From IMG/VR virus record IMGVR_UViG_3300021431_000008: 27,456 bases of DNA; one strand, written 5' to 3'. Within the stretch, counting starts at the first letter, position 1; the number at the start of each line of letters is the position of its first letter. This DNA comes from a virus. Taxonomy: Duplodnaviria; Heunggongvirae; Uroviricota; Caudoviricetes. Positions 18,625-25,705 of this stretch are shown piece after piece. The notes under the pieces were generated by a model. That model made no database searches. It saw only the letters and a list, made by a program, of their open reading frames with translations, and had not been told where the DNA came from. The translations under genes and the position numbers were made by a program.

Positions 18625-20640
18625 TTAACCAGGGTTAGACGGATTGGTGGTGGTAACCTCTTCCTCGATAACGATGAAGGAATACAGGCGAGTGGTAGCG
18701 CCGGAGACGCGGGTCTCAAGCAGGCTCTTCTCCTGGTTAAAGTCGATATCGAACTGGGTGCGATGAATGATCTCGCCGCCCTTGGTCTGACCAAGAGCGT
18801 AGTCAGCCAGGTTACCAATGATAGCCAGCAGACGATAGGTCTTATTATTAGCAGTACGGGTCTTGTTCACAAACTCGGGAACACTGTAAACATTGCCGAC
18901 ATCCAGAGCACTGGTAAGCTCGCCCTTGTTGGCATACAGACGACGACCGTTCAGATCCTTGGCCAGCATCATCTTGTTAAAGAAGGCCTGCGTGCAGAAC
19001 ATATCGGGAGTGCCGGTGCCCTTGAAGTCGATCTTGGCGTCGAGAATAGCCTCCTCGGTAGCCTGAGCATACTTGTAGCTATCGCCGAAGTTACCGGAGT
19101 AATCACCATTCACGCCGGACAGATCGAGAGCCTTGTGAATGGTATAGATGTCGTTATCAGTCCAGATAGGACGGATGTGCTCGGGATTGATCTTATCGGC
19201 ATCGGCATCGTCACGACCGTCGCCAATCAGCATGGCCTGAGCAAGCTCGAGCTCCAGCTGGGCGCGATCAATCTTATACTGATAATCGACGTAATCGAAA
19301 TCGGTGATGTCAACAACGTCGTCGTGATTCAGAGCGGACTTGACATACACGGTCTGAGGATCGGTAACACGCTTGGCAACGGTGTAGTTACCGGCGAGAG
19401 TCTTCTCCTTACCCTTCAGATAACCGCGGGCACGCAGGGCCTCGATACCACGAATATCGACATAGCTGGTGCGGATACGGCTGAACGGGCTCTTGTGGAC
19501 CTTGTTCAGAACAGCCTTAACCCAAGCCTGGTCGTTGGTAACAAGCTGAGGGGCGCCGGGATAAACGTCATGGTACTCGGGGAAGAAACCCTCAACCGCA
19601 GCGGGATTCTGTCCAACGGGATAGGAAGCAGCACCGGAAACAGGAGCCAGAGTGGAAGTGGGAGCAGGAGTCGGATCATCGTCGGCATGAGCCAGCTCAT
19701 TCTCCTCAGCATAAGCGGCAAGAGCGTCGCTCAGCTTACCATACTTCTTGGCAACAGCAATGATGTTCATCTCATCATCGTGGGAAAGATAAGCGCCGGA
19801 CTGGGCAGCACCGGCATCAAAAGCGTTAAAGTTCATAACTTCTCCTCCATTGTCGGAATGTTTAATTTCAGCCTTGGCATCTTCAACAGCCTTGCTGATC
19901 AGGAATTTCATTACTTTCAGCTGATTGTCATCCATTGTATCGATAACATCCTGGACCGTAGCATCTTTACCAAGGTCAGCATGCTCGATTTCATCATCAT
20001 CTTCATCAGCACCGCCAGCTTCGCTAGCAGCCTGAGCGATAAGATAGGACATGACCTTCAGCTGGTCTTCGTTCATCGTGTCAATGACATCCTGAACGGT
20101 CTTCTCATTGTCCATTTCTTTGCCTCCGTCTTCATCTTTATCGGCATGTCCAAGCTCGAGACCATAATCTTCGCCGATATAGATGTAAGCTTCGTCCATC
20201 AAAGTTTCGGGATCATCGCCGTGCATAATAATCGGATAGGTAATCTGAGCACCCATATTGGCACCAGCCAGCACAAGGCTCACTTCCTTAATGGAACCAT
20301 GAAGAACATCTCCACCACTCTGCTTGAGCTGATTTGCCCAAATAGAAAGAGACGTCACGTCGCGGTGCATTACATCCTGCTTTGCACGCTTAGCATCCTC
20401 GCTATCATTAAAATAACCATAAAAGAAAACGCCCTCAGGACGGTTCTCAAGAAAACCATGTCCGAGGACGGCATTAGGACTATCGTGATTGTGCCCCCAA
20501 ACAAGAGGAACCTTAGCTCCATCCTGGTGGGCGAACGCATCACGGCGAATTGTACGGCCATCACTGCAACGGAGATCATTACGCGTTGCCCAACCGGCAA
20601 AATCGCAGTCCTGATATTTCGCAGGAATTGCGTCAGGCAT
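18625..20640 (-). CDS. Prohead protease (HK97/S78-like) - scaffold-like linker - major capsid protein fusion, 671 aa
   Basis: SD AGGAGG. N-terminal protease motifs FAGWA, VPLVWGH50, SLS99I, KEVSLVLAGAN. Acidic helical linker at aa about 140-318. C-terminal about 350 aa capsid region ending FDIDFNQEKSLLETRVSGATTRLYSFIVIE. Confidence 0.9.
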   Translation of the reverse strand: MPDAIPAKYQDCDFAGWATRNDLRCSDGRTIRRDAFAHQDGAKVPLVWGHNHDSPNAVLGHGFLENRPEGVFFYGYFNDSEDAKRAKQDVMHRDVTSLSIWANQLKQSGGDVLHGSIKEVSLVLAGANMGAQITYPIIMHGDDPETLMDEAYIYIGEDYGLELGHADKDEDGGKEMDNEKTVQDVIDTMNEDQLKVMSYLIAQAASEAGGADEDDDEIEHADLGKDATVQDVIDTMDDNQLKVMKFLISKAVEDAKAEIKHSDNGGEVMNFNAFDAGAAQSGAYLSHDDEMNIIAVAKKYGKLSDALAAYAEENELAHADDDPTPAPTSTLAPVSGAASYPVGQNPAAVEGFFPEYHDVYPGAPQLVTNDQAWVKAVLNKVHKSPFSRIRTSYVDIRGIEALRARGYLKGKEKTLAGNYTVAKRVTDPQTVYVKSALNHDDVVDITDFDYVDYQYKIDRAQLELELAQAMLIGDGRDDADADKINPEHIRPIWTDNDIYTIHKALDLSGVNGDYSGNFGDSYKYAQATEEAILDAKIDFKGTGTPDMFCTQAFFNKMMLAKDLNGRRLYANKGELTSALDVGNVYSVPEFVNKTRTANNKTYRLLAIIGNLADYALGQTKGGEIIHRTQFDIDFNQEKSLLETRVSGATTRLYSFIVIEEEVTTTNPSNPG

Positions 20641-20735: not shown

Positions 20736-22190
20736 CTACTCTTCACTGTTAACATTGTTTTGTCCTTCGGCTGCGCGATCAAGCAAGTAATTTAAAACTG
20801 TTACTTGTCGATCATCCATTGTTTCGATGACGTTCTGTACAGTCTCAGCATCAAGATTTTCCTCATCAAGAGGCTCTTCTTCAGATGCAGCTTCTGTCGT
20901 TTCGGACTCAGCCGTTTCTTCCTCGGGAGCGACTCCATCATTTAAATCAGTCGTGTCTCCCGTTATGGCGGCATCGTCTTCTTCAGCCATTGGATCCATT
21001 TCTGTTGGCATGTTGGGGTTTCTCAGGGAATCGGCACCTTCCTGATCCGAGGGTTTAAAGCCAAGAATTCCTCGCATCTCGTTCGGCGTCAGAATCTCAT
21101 TGCGAATCAGCTTATCGCCAAGTTCAGCAACATCTCCGACGGGAACCAAGCGGAACGGATTATGGAAGGACAAAATCGAATGCCCCTGAGTACGGGCCGC
21201 CTTTGTAAGCCATTTGCGAACCATGCCGTCTACAAAGGTCGTAACAAGCGGTTCGATAATATTATTGTTATAGTTCAGCTTCGTCATTTCATTGGCATTA
21301 CCGTTTAAAATCTCAGGACAAACACCAAGCTGATCGTGCAGTTGCTTTGTCAGCGAGTCGATCTGTGCCTGAAGATTATTATCAAGCGGTCTACCGAGCT
21401 GAATGACTTTTTCGGAAGCATCGATATAACCGATACCGTAGCGGGAACCGGCCAGCTGCACTTCCAGATCGTGTCTACGCTGTTCGGCTCTCTCCTTCTG
21501 CGTCTCATGGCGAGTGGCGTAAGGAAGCTGAATAATCATATCGAGCTTGCCGGATGCCGTCTTGTCGTCAATCTGATCGAGAAGAGCAAGTTTCTTCCGA
21601 AGACGCATCATCAACGAGTTTGGCGCATTCATGATGTCATAGAAGGGATTCTGCAAAATAACGCAGAGCTTCTTTGGCATACGAATCGTTTCTCGTTGCC
21701 CTGTTTCTTCATTGTAGAGCTCTACATCGATCTCTTTCGGATACCAAGCCATGATCTTGCCAACACGAGCAGACTGAATCTTATTGATGGACATCGTCTG
21801 ATAATTCACATCGGCAATAATCGGACAAACTGCAATATACCCTTCGTCAAGGAGAGATGCATAGACATCCTGCTTGAAGTCTCGAGCAGACTGATCGAGA
21901 TTGGCCTCTAAAGTCAGAATATCGTTGAGCTCATCCTCAACATCTTCCTGGTATCGTTTGTACTTATCAAGCTTGACATGCCGAATATCAACAGCTGCAG
22001 CATCGACTGCAATGCGATTCAAAAGAGGCGCAATAATAGACCGTTCGTTTCCGACTTTCGGTCTTCGACGATCCGGCCTTAAACTACCCGCTGAACTATA
22101 TGAGAAAATATCCTGTTGACGTACAGGAGTGGGATCTCTGTTTCGGAAGGCGTTCCAAGCCTTCTGAACGCGCTCAGTTAAACTGGGCAA
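20736..22190 (-). CDS. Portal protein, 484 aa
   Basis: TTG start with SD GGAGGTGA. NRIAVD, LEANLDQ.AR.F, DEGYIAV, GKLDMIIQLPY, EKVIQL, LIRNEILTPNEMRGILG (late TPNE.R motif of HK97-type portals). Lies between the terminase region and the capsid gene. Confidence 0.92.
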   Translation of the reverse strand: MPSLTERVQKAWNAFRNRDPTPVRQQDIFSYSSAGSLRPDRRRPKVGNERSIIAPLLNRIAVDAAAVDIRHVKLDKYKRYQEDVEDELNDILTLEANLDQSARDFKQDVYASLLDEGYIAVCPIIADVNYQTMSINKIQSARVGKIMAWYPKEIDVELYNEETGQRETIRMPKKLCVILQNPFYDIMNAPNSLMMRLRKKLALLDQIDDKTASGKLDMIIQLPYATRHETQKERAEQRRHDLEVQLAGSRYGIGYIDASEKVIQLGRPLDNNLQAQIDSLTKQLHDQLGVCPEILNGNANEMTKLNYNNNIIEPLVTTFVDGMVRKWLTKAARTQGHSILSFHNPFRLVPVGDVAELGDKLIRNEILTPNEMRGILGFKPSDQEGADSLRNPNMPTEMDPMAEEDDAAITGDTTDLNDGVAPEEETAESETTEAASEEEPLDEENLDAETVQNVIETMDDRQVTVLNYLLDRAAEGQNNVNSEE

Positions 22191-22209: not shown

Positions 22210-23202
22210 TTATTTTCTACGTTTTCTAAATTCCTCAAGTTTTCCAAGTGGCGTAGCTCGAAATTCAGCTTCGGCCTCTTTTAACTTATCAGTTAATGTA
22301 GGATCAGATCCATAAGCCGCAGGATACATCTGGCGAATTGTAGCATCCCACCATTGCTCCGAAATTTCTGTAAGATCAGATTCCAACTTTTCGTATTTTG
22401 ATTTTTCCGAATTAGTCATTTTCTGATCATAATTAGCGCCGTATTTTTCAAACATCTCGTTGTCAAAATCGATATAGGCTTGGCGAAGCGGCTCTCGTTC
22501 AGCTGCTAATTCGAGACCGCGATCATACATTTCATCGCGTGCCTTTCGAGCTTCATCTAACCGTTCGCGTTCATCAACACCGGCGATATCTTTTGCTTTG
22601 TCAACGGCTTTCCGTCCAAGATCCTGAGCAATCTCTTTGGCCGTACCATCCTGCCCGGTAGCAATCTCCCAGGCACGTTCTTTGGCATAATCCAAACGCC
22701 CTAAAGGAGTCTTACGATATTCGGCCTGCGCTTTTTCAGCTGCTTCCCAATCTTTCTTTGAGGAATTCGGACCTACTTTATTCCAGGCGGCTTCGGCACG
22801 TTCTCGCTCATCGACTCCAGCACGGTCCTTAATAGTATCGGCAGCTTTGTTCAGGCCACTGCGAATATCGTCATGCATCCGTTCAGCACGAGCTTTACCA
22901 TTAGAAACGGCGCTCTGAGCCTTTTGTTTAGCTTGCTGAGCTGCGTTATTGGCTTTACTACGCGCATTATCGTAATAAGCCTTCAACTCATCCTGAGTAT
23001 AAAAATACCGAGCCTTAGCACCGTCACCGATCTTTTCGATATACTTTACGGCACGATTACCAGCGGAACGAGCCGAACCGTATGCGTTACCGGCCGCAGA
23101 ACGGGCTGAACTATATGCGCTCTTCGCTCGATCCCAAATCGAATGCGAGAGATAAGGTTGTCCATTTTCATCAATTAAAATGACGTAATTGGAGTTTTGC
23201 AT
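22210..23202 (-). CDS. Hypothetical charged alpha-helical protein A, 330 aa; candidate internal head/ejection protein
   Basis: SD AGGAGG. First 77 aa are 72/77 identical to the 391 aa protein. Ala/Lys/Arg/Glu/Asp-rich with no TM segment. The function is inferred. Confidence 0.6.
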   Translation of the reverse strand: MQNSNYVILIDENGQPYLSHSIWDRAKSAYSSARSAAGNAYGSARSAGNRAVKYIEKIGDGAKARYFYTQDELKAYYDNARSKANNAAQQAKQKAQSAVSNGKARAERMHDDIRSGLNKAADTIKDRAGVDERERAEAAWNKVGPNSSKKDWEAAEKAQAEYRKTPLGRLDYAKERAWEIATGQDGTAKEIAQDLGRKAVDKAKDIAGVDERERLDEARKARDEMYDRGLELAAEREPLRQAYIDFDNEMFEKYGANYDQKMTNSEKSKYEKLESDLTEISEQWWDATIRQMYPAAYGSDPTLTDKLKEAEAEFRATPLGKLEEFRKRRK

Positions 23203-23213
23203 TTTAGCCTCCT
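22973..23213. repeat. 241 bp direct repeat, copy 1 (RBS plus first 77 codons of protein A)
   Basis: Hand alignment to 25039..25279: 221/241 identical, no gaps. Confidence 0.95.
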
Positions 23214-23230
23214 CAAATTATAGAGGAAGA

Positions 23231-23578
23231 TTAATGCTTCCCCGTATAAACTTTCAGACCTTCGTCAGTGGTTTCGTTAACGACAAGCTTTACGAGGCCT
23301 TTCTTCAAAACGTCTTCACCACTAAGATCGATATCGACACCAGTAACTTCACCAGTCGGAAGGACATTAACTGCGCCATCATTCCCAGTCTCAGGCAAAT
23401 CGGTAATGATACTGGTCAGGAGCGAATAGACCGCGGCAACAAGAGAAACGGAAAGAACATTAAGCCAATCTACCTCGCTCACGGTCATACCAACGGTAAT
23501 CATACCAAGGGCAACCTGTGCGGCAGTACGAAGCATACGAATCGCAGCCGCCTTAAACCAATCAAGCGTGAACTTCAT
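23231..23578 (-). CDS. Holin, r1t-like family, 115 aa
   Basis: SD AAGGAG. W.KAA.IR..RT.AQ.A...I.VG.....VDW..VLS.S..AA..SLLTSI...LPE is the r1t holin-type pattern, with two hydrophobic helices. Confidence 0.75.
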   Translation of the reverse strand: MKFTLDWFKAAAIRMLRTAAQVALGMITVGMTVSEVDWLNVLSVSLVAAVYSLLTSIITDLPETGNDGAVNVLPTGEVTGVDIDLSGEDVLKKGLVKLVVNETTDEGLKVYTGKH

Positions 23579-24062
23579 AGTTTTCTCCTTCTTTCAAATA
23601 AGAATTTTCCTGAATACACTTCAGGTTTAAACGACGTATTTCTGTGATGGCAGCATCTACAACACCGTTTTTAATCTTGTGTGTACGAATATAAGTTTCA
23701 TAATCGTCGCACTGCTTAATCACAAATTCAAACTGTTCTTTTGTGTGCTTTCGACCATTCATGCAGGAATTACAGAATTCCAAAATATCTCGGCGAGTGT
23801 CCTTAATTTCTTTGGCAGATGATTCTTCAATGTGCTTATCCAATTCGGCACTGAGTTTCGTAACTTTACCGTCAATATCTTTCAGCTTGTCGTTAATACG
23901 GGAGTTAAACTTGGAGCCAATCCAACCTAGGATAACGGTCCAAGGATTAAACTTGATCGGAGTAAACTCCACAAACAAGCTGACAATAAAAAGGAGAACC
24001 GCCCAAAATGACAGCTCTCCGCTCCTGTCTCCGATCAGTTCGACCAGTTTTGCAACCGTCAT
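23562..24062 (-). CDS. Membrane-anchored protein (holin-associated/holin-like), 166 aa
   Basis: SD GGAGG. One N-terminal TM segment (FWAVLLFIVSLFVEF) followed by PIK.NPW, a coiled coil, and R..IL.F...C......T.E.F......D.YE.Y......NG. Overlaps the holin start. Confidence 0.6.
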   Translation of the reverse strand: MTVAKLVELIGDRSGELSFWAVLLFIVSLFVEFTPIKFNPWTVILGWIGSKFNSRINDKLKDIDGKVTKLSAELDKHIEESSAKEIKDTRRDILEFCNSCMNGRKHTKEQFEFVIKQCDDYETYIRTHKIKNGVVDAAITEIRRLNLKCIQENSYLKEGENYEVHA

Positions 24063-24092
24063 GGAAGTGTCCTCCGATTGCTATTTATAGTT

Positions 24093-25268
24093 TTATTTAT
24101 TCTTCAGTGCATCCTCATAAATATCATTAAGTTCAGTAGCCATACGTTCCATTTCCCGCTGATAGGCAACTCTCTTTATTGGATTACGTTCCGATGTATA
24201 TTTATCTGCTAACGAATCTAAAGAATTATACAGATCTTCAGTTCTTTTTTTTGCAGTTACTAATTCATTGCTGTTGGGGTCGTATGCCCACTGATTCGAC
24301 AACTGAACCTCAGACACTTTTTCACTCAGATTTGCTGCTTTTTGTGCTAGCGGGCCAAGCTTACTATCGGCCCATCGATCTTCCTGATGGGCATTAACAA
24401 AATCAAGTGCTTTACTCGCCGCTGTCTTCGTTCGATCAACGGCATCAGAAGCAGCTTCCTTAGCGCGATCAGCAGCATCGGAAGCAGCTTCCTTAGCACG
24501 ATCAACAGTATCAGGAATAACATCCGTAATAAAACCAAGAGGCGTTTGCTCATAATGGTTCTGAGCATTATGTGCTTTTAGCGAAGCGTCTTCATACTCT
24601 CTTTGTTTCATCCGAGCGTCAACTTCTGCAAGTTTTACATCGTCATTTGCTCTAAGAAAAGCATCCGTATCTTTCTGCAGCCGAGCGTCATATTCTTCGC
24701 GCATTTTAGTGTCACGATCGCGTGCATCCGCACTTAAAGCACGTTTAGCTTTTTCGATAAACCCTTTGCGCTCATCTAAGTATTCCTCAGCGCTTCCTTT
24801 ATGATTATCTAACCTATCTTTTACGAAATCACGTGCTAATTTAGCATTATTAAGACGTTGCTGGGCATTAAAATGCTTGACAAATGCAGCATCAGATTTA
24901 CGTATTGCAGCATCTCGTTTCTCGCGATCGGTAATTCCGATTGCGTCACGAGCTGAAGCCACTGCTTTATTAGCTGCATTTTTAGCAGACTGAGATGCTT
25001 TATTAGCTGCATTCTTAGCAGCATTTTTGCCCTTATTATAATAAGCCTTCAACTCGTCCTGAGTATAGAAATACCGAGCCTTAGCGCCGTCACCGATCTT
25101 TTCGATATACTTCACGGCGCGATTGCCTGCGGAACGAGCTGAACCGTATGCTTTACCGGCGGCAGAACGGGCCGAACCATAGGCATTCTTCGCTCGATCC
25201 CAAATCGAATGCGCGAGATAAGGTTGTCCGTTTTCGTCAATTAAAACAACGTAATTGGAGTTTTGCAT
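24093..25268 (-). CDS. Hypothetical charged alpha-helical protein B, 391 aa; paralog of protein A; candidate internal head/ejection protein
   Basis: SD AGGAGG. Shares the N-terminal 77 aa and the G..eRe+...TPLG module with protein A. Contains 11-aa tandem repeats. Confidence 0.6.
   Translation of the reverse strand: MQNSNYVVLIDENGQPYLAHSIWDRAKNAYGSARSAAGKAYGSARSAGNRAVKYIEKIGDGAKARYFYTQDELKAYYNKGKNAAKNAANKASQSAKNAANKAVASARDAIGITDREKRDAAIRKSDAAFVKHFNAQQRLNNAKLARDFVKDRLDNHKGSAEEYLDERKGFIEKAKRALSADARDRDTKMREEYDARLQKDTDAFLRANDDVKLAEVDARMKQREYEDASLKAHNAQNHYEQTPLGFITDVIPDTVDRAKEAASDAADRAKEAASDAVDRTKTAASKALDFVNAHQEDRWADSKLGPLAQKAANLSEKVSEVQLSNQWAYDPNSNELVTAKKRTEDLYNSLDSLADKYTSERNPIKRVAYQREMERMATELNDIYEDALKNK
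24433..24506. repeat. 33 bp tandem repeat (about 2.2 units) encoding DRAKEAASDA[AV]
   Basis: cgatcaacggcatcagaagcagcttccttagcg / cgatcagcagcatcggaagcagcttccttagca / cgatcaac. Confidence 0.85.
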
Positions 25269-25279
25269 TTTAGCCTCCT
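25039..25279. repeat. 241 bp direct repeat, copy 2 (RBS plus first 77 codons of protein B)
   Basis: Hand alignment to 22973..23213: 221/241 identical, offset 2066 bp. Confidence 0.95.
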
Positions 25280-25685
25280 ATAGATCTTTAAGATTTATAT
25301 AGCGATAACGTTCAATCATGTTATCGCCACGAGAAATAAGGCCTTGACTCAAAGAAACTACAGTCTGATCAGCAAACGCTTTTTGCATAGACTCATACCA
25401 ATTAGAAGCCCGTTTTGCATATCGTTTGCTCTTTTGATAGTTTCTTCTAGCCAACTCAGCTTCCCGTTTATTGCTTCCAATTCGTCTGTTATTCGCTCGT
25501 TTACTATATTTCGTAGATTTATCAAAAGCCTTATCCGACTTTGTAGCTAACTTTTTAAACTTTGTACTAGCCCGTGTATAAGCCTTCTGAGGATCGTGTC
25601 GAACACCCCAACGCATACCTAGGACGCCGTAATGAGCAAGCGAAGGAGAGCCGTTCTCATCAAGGGTAATCATATAATCAGACAA
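25278..25685 (-). CDS. Basic protein with LAHYGVLGMRWGVR motif (about 135 aa); candidate minor head/internal protein
   Basis: The track ATG at 25694 abuts the SD (AAGGAG-ATG), so TTG at 25685 fits the spacing better. The LxHxGxxGM[KR]WGVR motif is one I recognise from head-region genes of related siphoviruses. The body is Lys/Arg-rich. Confidence 0.65.
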   Translation of the reverse strand: MSDYMITLDENGSPSLAHYGVLGMRWGVRHDPQKAYTRASTKFKKLATKSDKAFDKSTKYSKRANNRRIGSNKREAELARRNYQKSKRYAKRASNWYESMQKAFADQTVVSLSQGLISRGDNMIERYRYINLKDL

Positions 25686-25705
25686 TACGATCATCTCCTT
25701 TTATC

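Follow-up and report, generated by a model that had tools for sequence, protein, structure and literature searches.

This study concerns a 27,456-nucleotide stretch of DNA from a tailed gut phage (Caudoviricetes; IMG/VR record IMGVR_UViG_3300021431_000008), hereafter the window, and the gene on its minus strand in which a protease, a linker and the major capsid protein are encoded as one precursor polypeptide. Every histidine of the linker lies in a single short motif, hydrophobic-x-His followed by a small or acidic residue. Because a very large family of phages has conserved this motif, the protease probably cuts after His. We favour the reading that the motifs are redundant maturation sites cut after His (the P1 residue) by the fused protease, an enzyme of predicted assemblin fold; the mature coat protein would then start at A319, and the leaders of other head-module proteins would be trimmed in the same way. 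This reading draws on sequence, on structure models and on analogy with known maturation systems. The motif, its conservation, its placement in segments modelled as flexible, the modelled fold of the protease and the invariant His and Ser of the protease are observations, presented in the sections below.

Six linker histidines in one motif

The precursor has 18 histidines in total, and residues 128–345 hold exactly six, all of which fit the pattern [IL]-x-H-[AGSD]-D: IMH140GD, LGH165AD, IEH220AD, IKH261SD, LSH287DD and LAH318AD. The preliminary description of this DNA, made from the letters alone, had claimed exactly this, and the translation of the open reading frame (ORF) bears it out; the coordinates given there for the sites, 19681..20229, coincide with the span of the five-residue motifs. 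A composition artefact was ruled out by shuffling the 218-residue linker 200,000 times with its composition kept: the strict motif is found six times in the real linker and at most twice in any shuffle, and its chance per His is ∼0.0066. A repeat at the DNA level was likewise discarded as the source of the sites, since synonymous codons differ among the six, which points to selection at the protein level. As for cis-autoproteolysis of the GPS/Nup98 type (H-x-S/T), it was excluded because positions +1 and +2 are often Ala, Gly or Asp and provide no nucleophile.

A seventh strict match, LNH439DD, which the preliminary description had missed, lies in the folded capsid domain. H439 was rejected as an internal capsid site, and the match is probably due to chance, because it is inside the capsid fold and is not conserved (the position is Arg in 76 of the 120 close homologs introduced below).

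Conservation of the motif across the family

Two sets of relatives were compared: 120 close homologs with 54–94% identity to the precursor, and 150 representatives of 50%-identity clusters (37–62% identity to the query), drawn from 1440 matches. In the close homologs, the linker His is kept in 119–120 of 120 sequences for five sites and in 89 for H220, and the −1 and +1 residues vary. In the 150 representatives, 875 of the 1036 linker histidines (84%) read hydrophobic-x-H-[SAGDNET]; each representative has at least one site, usually 4–8, and both the spacing of the sites and the length of the linker differ. Conservation of the motif in homologous precursors, within an otherwise divergent linker, had been put forward beforehand as a check of the proposal, and it is found in both sets.

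Regarding the residues around His in the representatives, position −2 is L/I/M/V/F in 89% of linker sites (1.8 bits), position +1 is S/A/G/D/N in 83% (0.9 bits), and position +2 is D/E in 55% (0.5 bits), giving the consensus hydrophobic-x-H-[SAG]-[DE]; the histidines outside the linker yield no comparable logo. A single-residue scan of the linker assigned 4.3 bits of flanking information to His versus at most 1.9 to any other residue. No motif centred on Glu, Asp or Lys was found in the linker (the flanking signature of Glu is 0.28 bits), nor was the recurring (V/L/I)-x-A|S motif of herpesvirus substrates; with the abundant Glu, Asp and Lys lacking a flanking signature, there is no competing candidate for a cut-site motif.

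At residues 269–274 (19819–19836, minus strand) the window precursor reads M-N-F-N-A-F, where the family-wide form is M-K-H-N-V-F, with N and F at least 90% conserved.

Site placement and the capsid domain in the structure model

The AlphaFold2 (AF2) model of the precursor was built with 106 sequences and has a predicted local distance difference test (pLDDT) score of 81.8. Its modules follow one another in the order protease (1–135), H140, H165, helices 182–208, H220, helices 229–258, H261, then H287 opening helices 287–313, H318, a disordered N-arm and the capsid fold from residue ∼336. Segments 137–178, 259–281 and 316–335 are disordered, and each of the six site histidines is either inside a disordered stretch that separates folded modules or at its margin; the earlier claim that the sites bracket the modules therefore holds in this model.

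The capsid domain, over model residues ∼334–663, matches the HK97 fold, with Z 17.7 for the gene transfer agent (GTA) capsid and Z 17.0 for HK97. In most relatives the last site is 9 or 13 residues ahead of a conserved LFP motif, and residue 107 of HK97 is aligned with residue 346 of the model when the two structures are compared; combined with the spacing, this pairing brings the last site of most relatives to within a few residues of S104, where the mature HK97 protein begins. The lineage of this phage has a Pro/Ala/Thr-rich insert of ∼25 residues after the last site.

The fused precursor, its relatives and its protease domain

The models and fold searches place an N-terminal protease domain and a C-terminal HK97-fold capsid domain in a single ORF, directly downstream of a portal gene (PF04860). 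The precursor matches the profile of PHROG 3270, "head maturation protease", with an E value of 6.7e-187, a family profile match reflecting full-length similarity. At least 80% of its length is covered by 226 phage records, with identity below 50% in all of them, and 1440 representatives of 50%-identity clusters match it at E ≤ 0.001; the relatives at 54–94% identity come from metagenomes only, on contigs of up to about 96 kb. Known phage fusion homologs have 30–38% identity across 96–99% of the length, and have in common with the window precursor the architecture, the synteny after the portal gene and the linker motif. The fused protease-capsid gene itself is thus already known; the published accounts of these homologs note the fusion, and none was found that describes cleavage sites or specificity.

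No Pfam family matched the precursor at E ≤ 0.1, and a phmmer search against the PDB returned no sequence relative. The family profile gave a weak match (E 0.008) to PDB 9sz9/9sza, a 516-aa "major capsid protein"; the alignment extends over the protease region, with its His and Ser columns, as well as over the capsid region, and this protein is probably a distant protease-capsid fusion.

As for the protease domain, its model reached a pLDDT of 91.7 when built alone. H50 and S99 are invariant among 106 aligned family members, E119 is invariant or nearly so, and H114 is at least 90% conserved; the order His...Ser...His of conserved residues (H50, S99 and, as candidate third catalytic residue, H114) is that of the herpesvirus assemblins, and the H50 and S99 columns align with the His and Ser of 9sz9 in the weak profile match. 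In a wide VIA-align search, the highest Z scores were those of the proteases of varicella-zoster virus (VZV, 9.8), T4 (gp21, 9.4), human cytomegalovirus (HCMV, 7.6) and Kaposi's sarcoma-associated herpesvirus (KSHV, 6.1), with the next at 4.0; above background, the domain matches herpesvirus assemblins and T4 gp21 only. In Foldseek, all top matches among those listed were herpesvirus proteases. TIGR01543 (HK97 prohead protease) scored 28.2 bits versus a cut-off of 59, over 133 of 142 profile positions. By its TIGR01543 score and its fold matches, the domain is a distant enzyme of the HK97-type/assemblin fold. The preliminary description had proposed an S78-like protease with H50 and S99 as putative catalytic residues: the two residues are indeed invariant and the fold is that of assemblins and gp21, but the S78 assignment is not reached at curated thresholds, with TIGR01543 below its cut-off and Pfam silent.

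L-x-His leaders on other head-module proteins

Three proteins encoded between the terminase and portal genes of the window begin with leaders of 20 or 21 residues that end in L-S-H or L-A-H (Table 1), and the 138-aa one diverges from the other two after the leader. The 330-aa and 391-aa proteins (22973–25279, minus strand) are near-identical over their N-terminal ∼77 residues, comprising the leader and an AYxSARSAAG repeat, and differ from there on; their genes are separated by two small ORFs that resemble membrane proteins.

Leaders ending in L-x-H also occur in cultured relatives: gp17–20 and gp22 of Gordonia phage Eddiemania, orf7 of Lactococcus phage 1706 (annotated as a structural protein), gp7, gp9 and gp11 of Arthrobacter phage BenitoAntonio, and gp9–11 and gp13 of Streptomyces phage OlympicHelado, plus gp7 of the latter if its start is moved upstream. 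The annotated start of this gp7 (MKWG...; upstream stretch at L004:793-882, plus strand) cuts through a conserved L-S-H-YGVKGMKWG unit, and the frame stays open further upstream, so that translation probably begins before the annotated position.

Across 85 loci, L-x-H precedes 78 of 78 GxxGM[KR]WG motifs, and hydrophobic-x-H is present in the first 45 residues of 48% of the ORFs upstream of the fusion gene versus 27% of those downstream (p = 6e-11). Leaders vary in length between 7 and more than 30 residues; in the shortest, such as M-x-x-E-L-x-H, nothing else is conserved. The residue after the leader His is Y/H in the DUF7211 proteins, E/Y in the YASPYYDP and EYDP class, and R or S/A elsewhere; the hydrophobic −2 residue and His are the only constants across all linker and leader contexts.

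Two variants of the leader were observed. At one locus (L010:470-6700, plus strand), four head-module proteins have leaders ending in L-x-H followed by YNHNHDALGRF in place of the GMKWG unit, which makes YNHNHDALGRF a second conserved post-His module, in one lineage. In many relatives (loci L009, L011, L012, L018, L020 and L025–L027), the N-terminus of the portal protein consists of ∼10 residues ending in [IL]-[KQ]-H, then [AG]-WNAF, and judging from this similarity the portal of those relatives could also be trimmed. The portal of the window reads V-Q-K-A-WNAF at 22145–22190 (minus strand), with Lys replacing His.

Proposed mechanism and alternatives

From these data we infer the cleavage itself, the bond cut and the order of events as follows. 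The precursor is a single polypeptide made of an assemblin-fold serine protease (residues 1–135), an acidic scaffold-like spacer of three helical modules (136–318) and the HK97-fold coat. After assembly of the shell, the many protease domains tethered inside it would attack the spacer at its six accessible hydrophobic-x-His sites, cutting most likely directly after His, with a hydrophobic P3, His at P1 and a small or acidic P1'. The cut at site 1 (H140) would free the protease, like the herpesvirus release site; those at sites 2–5 would reduce the scaffold modules to peptides that are small enough to exit the shell; and that at site 6 (H318) would release the mature coat protein, starting at A319. 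The leaders of the three head-module proteins would probably be trimmed by the same enzyme, a proposal made because they end in the same L-x-His, just as T4 gp21 trims leaders ending in L/I-x-E.

Several points weigh against cleavage after His as proposed here. The literature search found no experimental N-terminus, mass or cleavage assay for any family member, and it returned no description of cleavage sites or of His specificity for the fusion family, nor of His at P1 for any prohead protease. Homologous sites are inherited, so that the counts given above are not independent events. The lineage of this phage lacks the His of the family site MKHNVF and keeps its N-x-F part, which makes single sites dispensable, and its predicted N-arm is ∼25 residues longer than in most relatives. 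Finally, a looser form of the motif occurs at the folded residues H61 and H114 of the protease and at H439; the motif alone is therefore insufficient, and accessibility matters.

The position of the bond deserves separate attention, because the linker sites, taken by themselves, fit equally well a cut placed one position further on, with a small P1 as in the A|S sites of herpesviruses. The recognition motif could thus be right and the bond other than His|X, the cut occurring either one residue downstream (hydrophobic P4, His at P2, small P1) or before His. The large share of S/A/G/D/N at +1 in the linker agrees with the downstream option, as do the nearest folds, those of the herpesvirus assemblins, given that the predicted pseudorabies sites YLQA-T and VQA-S have Ala at P1. 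However, the residue after His changes with the context, from small or acidic in the linker to Tyr or His in the DUF7211 leaders, and such variety would leave P1 almost unconstrained beside an invariant P2, which is unusual; a cut before His would instead place P1 on the variable −1 position. The main argument for His as P1 over P2 or P1' is that nothing other than the hydrophobic −2 residue and His recurs in every context, and we consider a displaced bond unlikely, although worth keeping in mind.

About as unlikely, in our estimate, is that hydrophobic-x-His serves as a docking or assembly motif, binding the capsid interior, the portal, a protease exosite or, with the neighbouring Asp/Glu, a metal ion, and that cleavage occurs elsewhere or with loose specificity. 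In the unit L-x-H-[YH]-G-x-x-G-M-[KR]-W-G of DUF7211, L and H are 100% invariant, which resembles a binding element and means that they could belong to a larger binding motif; a His beside Asp/Glu could bind divalent cations; and HK97 itself is not known to have a clear repeated motif. Nevertheless, the linker has no other recurring motif to mark cut sites, yet the N-terminal 318 residues must leave the HK97-fold shell; the sites lie in disordered segments between modules and not in the helical modules that would be expected to mediate assembly; the 7-residue leaders carry nothing else that is conserved; and a hydrophobic −2 residue is not typical of metal sites. Very improbable is a third reading, in which the pattern is a functionless by-product of module duplication in the linker or of its acidic composition. 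Copies of one helical repeat do follow H165 and H220, and the linker contains 14% Asp and 14% Ala; however, the shuffles that keep this composition never exceed two matches, H140, H261, H287 and H318 are outside the repeat copies, His is invariant while its neighbours and the number of sites change across the family, the codons differ from site to site, and the motif recurs on unrelated proteins.

Feature coordinates and a repeat in the portal protein

Table 1. Features of the precursor gene and of the leader-bearing proteins in the window (positions in the window; residues numbered within each protein).
Feature	Position	Strand	Basis
Protease-linker-major capsid protein precursor gene	18625..20640	-	One ORF, 671 aa plus stop; PHROG 3270 match
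Protease domain, residues 1-135	20236..20640	-	AF2 pLDDT >95; fold matches; invariant columns
Site 1, I-M-H140-G-D, directly after last protease strand (R-site-like)	20215..20229	-	His in 119/120 homologs, at least 90% family-wide; disordered 137-178
Site 2, L-G-H165-A-D	20140..20154	-	His in 120/120 homologs, at least 90% family-wide; disordered segment
Helical scaffold-like repeat 1, residues 182-208	20017..20097	-	AF2 helices; repeat pattern in 55/65 related fusion genes
Site 3, I-E-H220-A-D, between the two repeats	19975..19989	-	His in 89/120 homologs; low-confidence loop
Helical scaffold-like repeat 2, residues 229-258	19867..19956	-	AF2 helices
Site 4, I-K-H261-S-D	19852..19866	-	His in 120/120 homologs; start of disordered 259-281
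Site 5, L-S-H287-D-D, at start of conserved third helical module	19774..19788	-	His in 120/120 homologs; family consensus LSHxD
Third helical module, residues 287-313, bounded by sites 5 and 6	19702..19782	-	AF2; conserved family-wide (consensus)
Site 6, L-A-H318-A-D, predicted final maturation site	19681..19695	-	L316 and H318 in 120/120 homologs; start of disordered 316-335
Predicted mature capsid protein, residues 319-671 (N-arm 319-335, HK97 fold from ∼336)	18628..19686	-	Fold matches; N-terminus predicted
20-residue leader ending L-S-H20 on 330-aa head-module protein	23143..23202	-	
20-residue leader ending L-A-H20 on 391-aa head-module protein	25209..25268	-	
21-residue leader ending L-A-H21, then YGVLGMRWG, on 138-aa protein adjoining terminase gene	25632..25694	-	PF23847 (DUF7211), E 1.4e-9

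The portal protein ends (20764–20846, minus strand) in an acidic stretch and then a copy of the helical repeat of the linker (TVQxVIxTMxDxQ..V...L). When 53 other portal-like ORFs from related loci were scanned with a simple pattern, none had this copy, versus 55 of 65 fusion genes that have the repeat; hence, the portal repeat looks specific to this lineage, in which it may tie the scaffold to the portal.

Significance

The family comprises at least 1440 clusters at 50% identity and spans gut Firmicutes phages, Lactococcus 1706-like phages and several clusters of actinobacteriophages. On balance, we lean towards the wider view that the head protease of this very large tailed-phage family is an assemblin-fold enzyme cutting after His, its code marking both the removal of the scaffold and the trimming, perhaps also the loading, of variable proteins internal to the head. 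A maturation code of short repeated sites, together with leaders that end in the same motif, is already known from T4 and giant phages; the new elements are the specificity for His that is predicted here and the very large size of the family over which it extends. If correct, this would be a His-based counterpart of the L/I-x-E and capsid-targeting-sequence system of T4, it would add His at P1 to the specificities of a fold common to the herpesvirus assemblins, and it would provide a simple sequence tag for proteins processed, and perhaps packaged, inside the head. Should the cut be after His, sequence alone could suffice to predict the N-termini of mature coat and cargo proteins, both in many actinobacteriophages already in culture and in thousands of gut phages that are uncultured. 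Relatives are in culture (Lactococcus phage 1706 and the SEA-PHAGES isolates), which makes a direct test possible.

Comparison with known maturation systems

The nearest known systems, besides the fusion homologs, are those of HK97, the herpesviruses and T4. In HK97 (gp4/gp5; MEROPS S78), the coat has the same fold (Z 17.0), and the window protease has its weak TIGR01543 match; as in HK97, where the N-terminal delta domain of gp5 is removed, an N-terminal assembly domain would be lost, at a predicted position near the S104 equivalent in most relatives of the window precursor. Conversely, the HK97 protease is encoded by a separate gene, and it cuts at K103|S104 and is not known to use a repeated motif.

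Herpesvirus pUL26 (MEROPS S21) provides the best fold matches for the protease domain (4v07, 2wpo and 1vzv; TMq ∼0.6, Z up to 9.8). In both cases the protease is at the N-terminus of a scaffold fusion, with one site right after the protease and another close to the capsid end, the R and M sites of herpesviruses; in the pUL26 of pseudorabies virus, where protease and scaffold are fused, YLQA-T and VQA-S are the predicted sites for release and maturation (PMC4498786). The sites differ, with Ala at P1 and Ser/Thr at P1' in herpesviruses and His at the centre in the window precursor, and the herpesvirus scaffold is not fused to the capsid protein.

T4 gp21 (MEROPS S77) has the same protease fold as the window domain (5jbl, Z 9.4), although no sequence similarity was detected between them and the cleavage in the window is a prediction. 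It cuts after L/I-x-E, at many redundant sites in the scaffold proteins (PMC9026906). The likeness concerns the hydrophobic residue two positions ahead of the specific one and the many redundant scaffold sites, which here are seen at the sequence level, as well as the use of one motif both in the scaffold (gp22) and coat (gp23) proteins and at the end of the N-terminal leaders of internal proteins. T4 gp21 is, however, a separate core protein with Glu as its specific residue, whereas the window protease is fused to scaffold and coat and would have His as the specific residue. Enzymes with this fold recognise their substrates by short motifs that combine a hydrophobic P3 with one particular P1 residue, and by analogy hydrophobic-x-His-small would have the same format.

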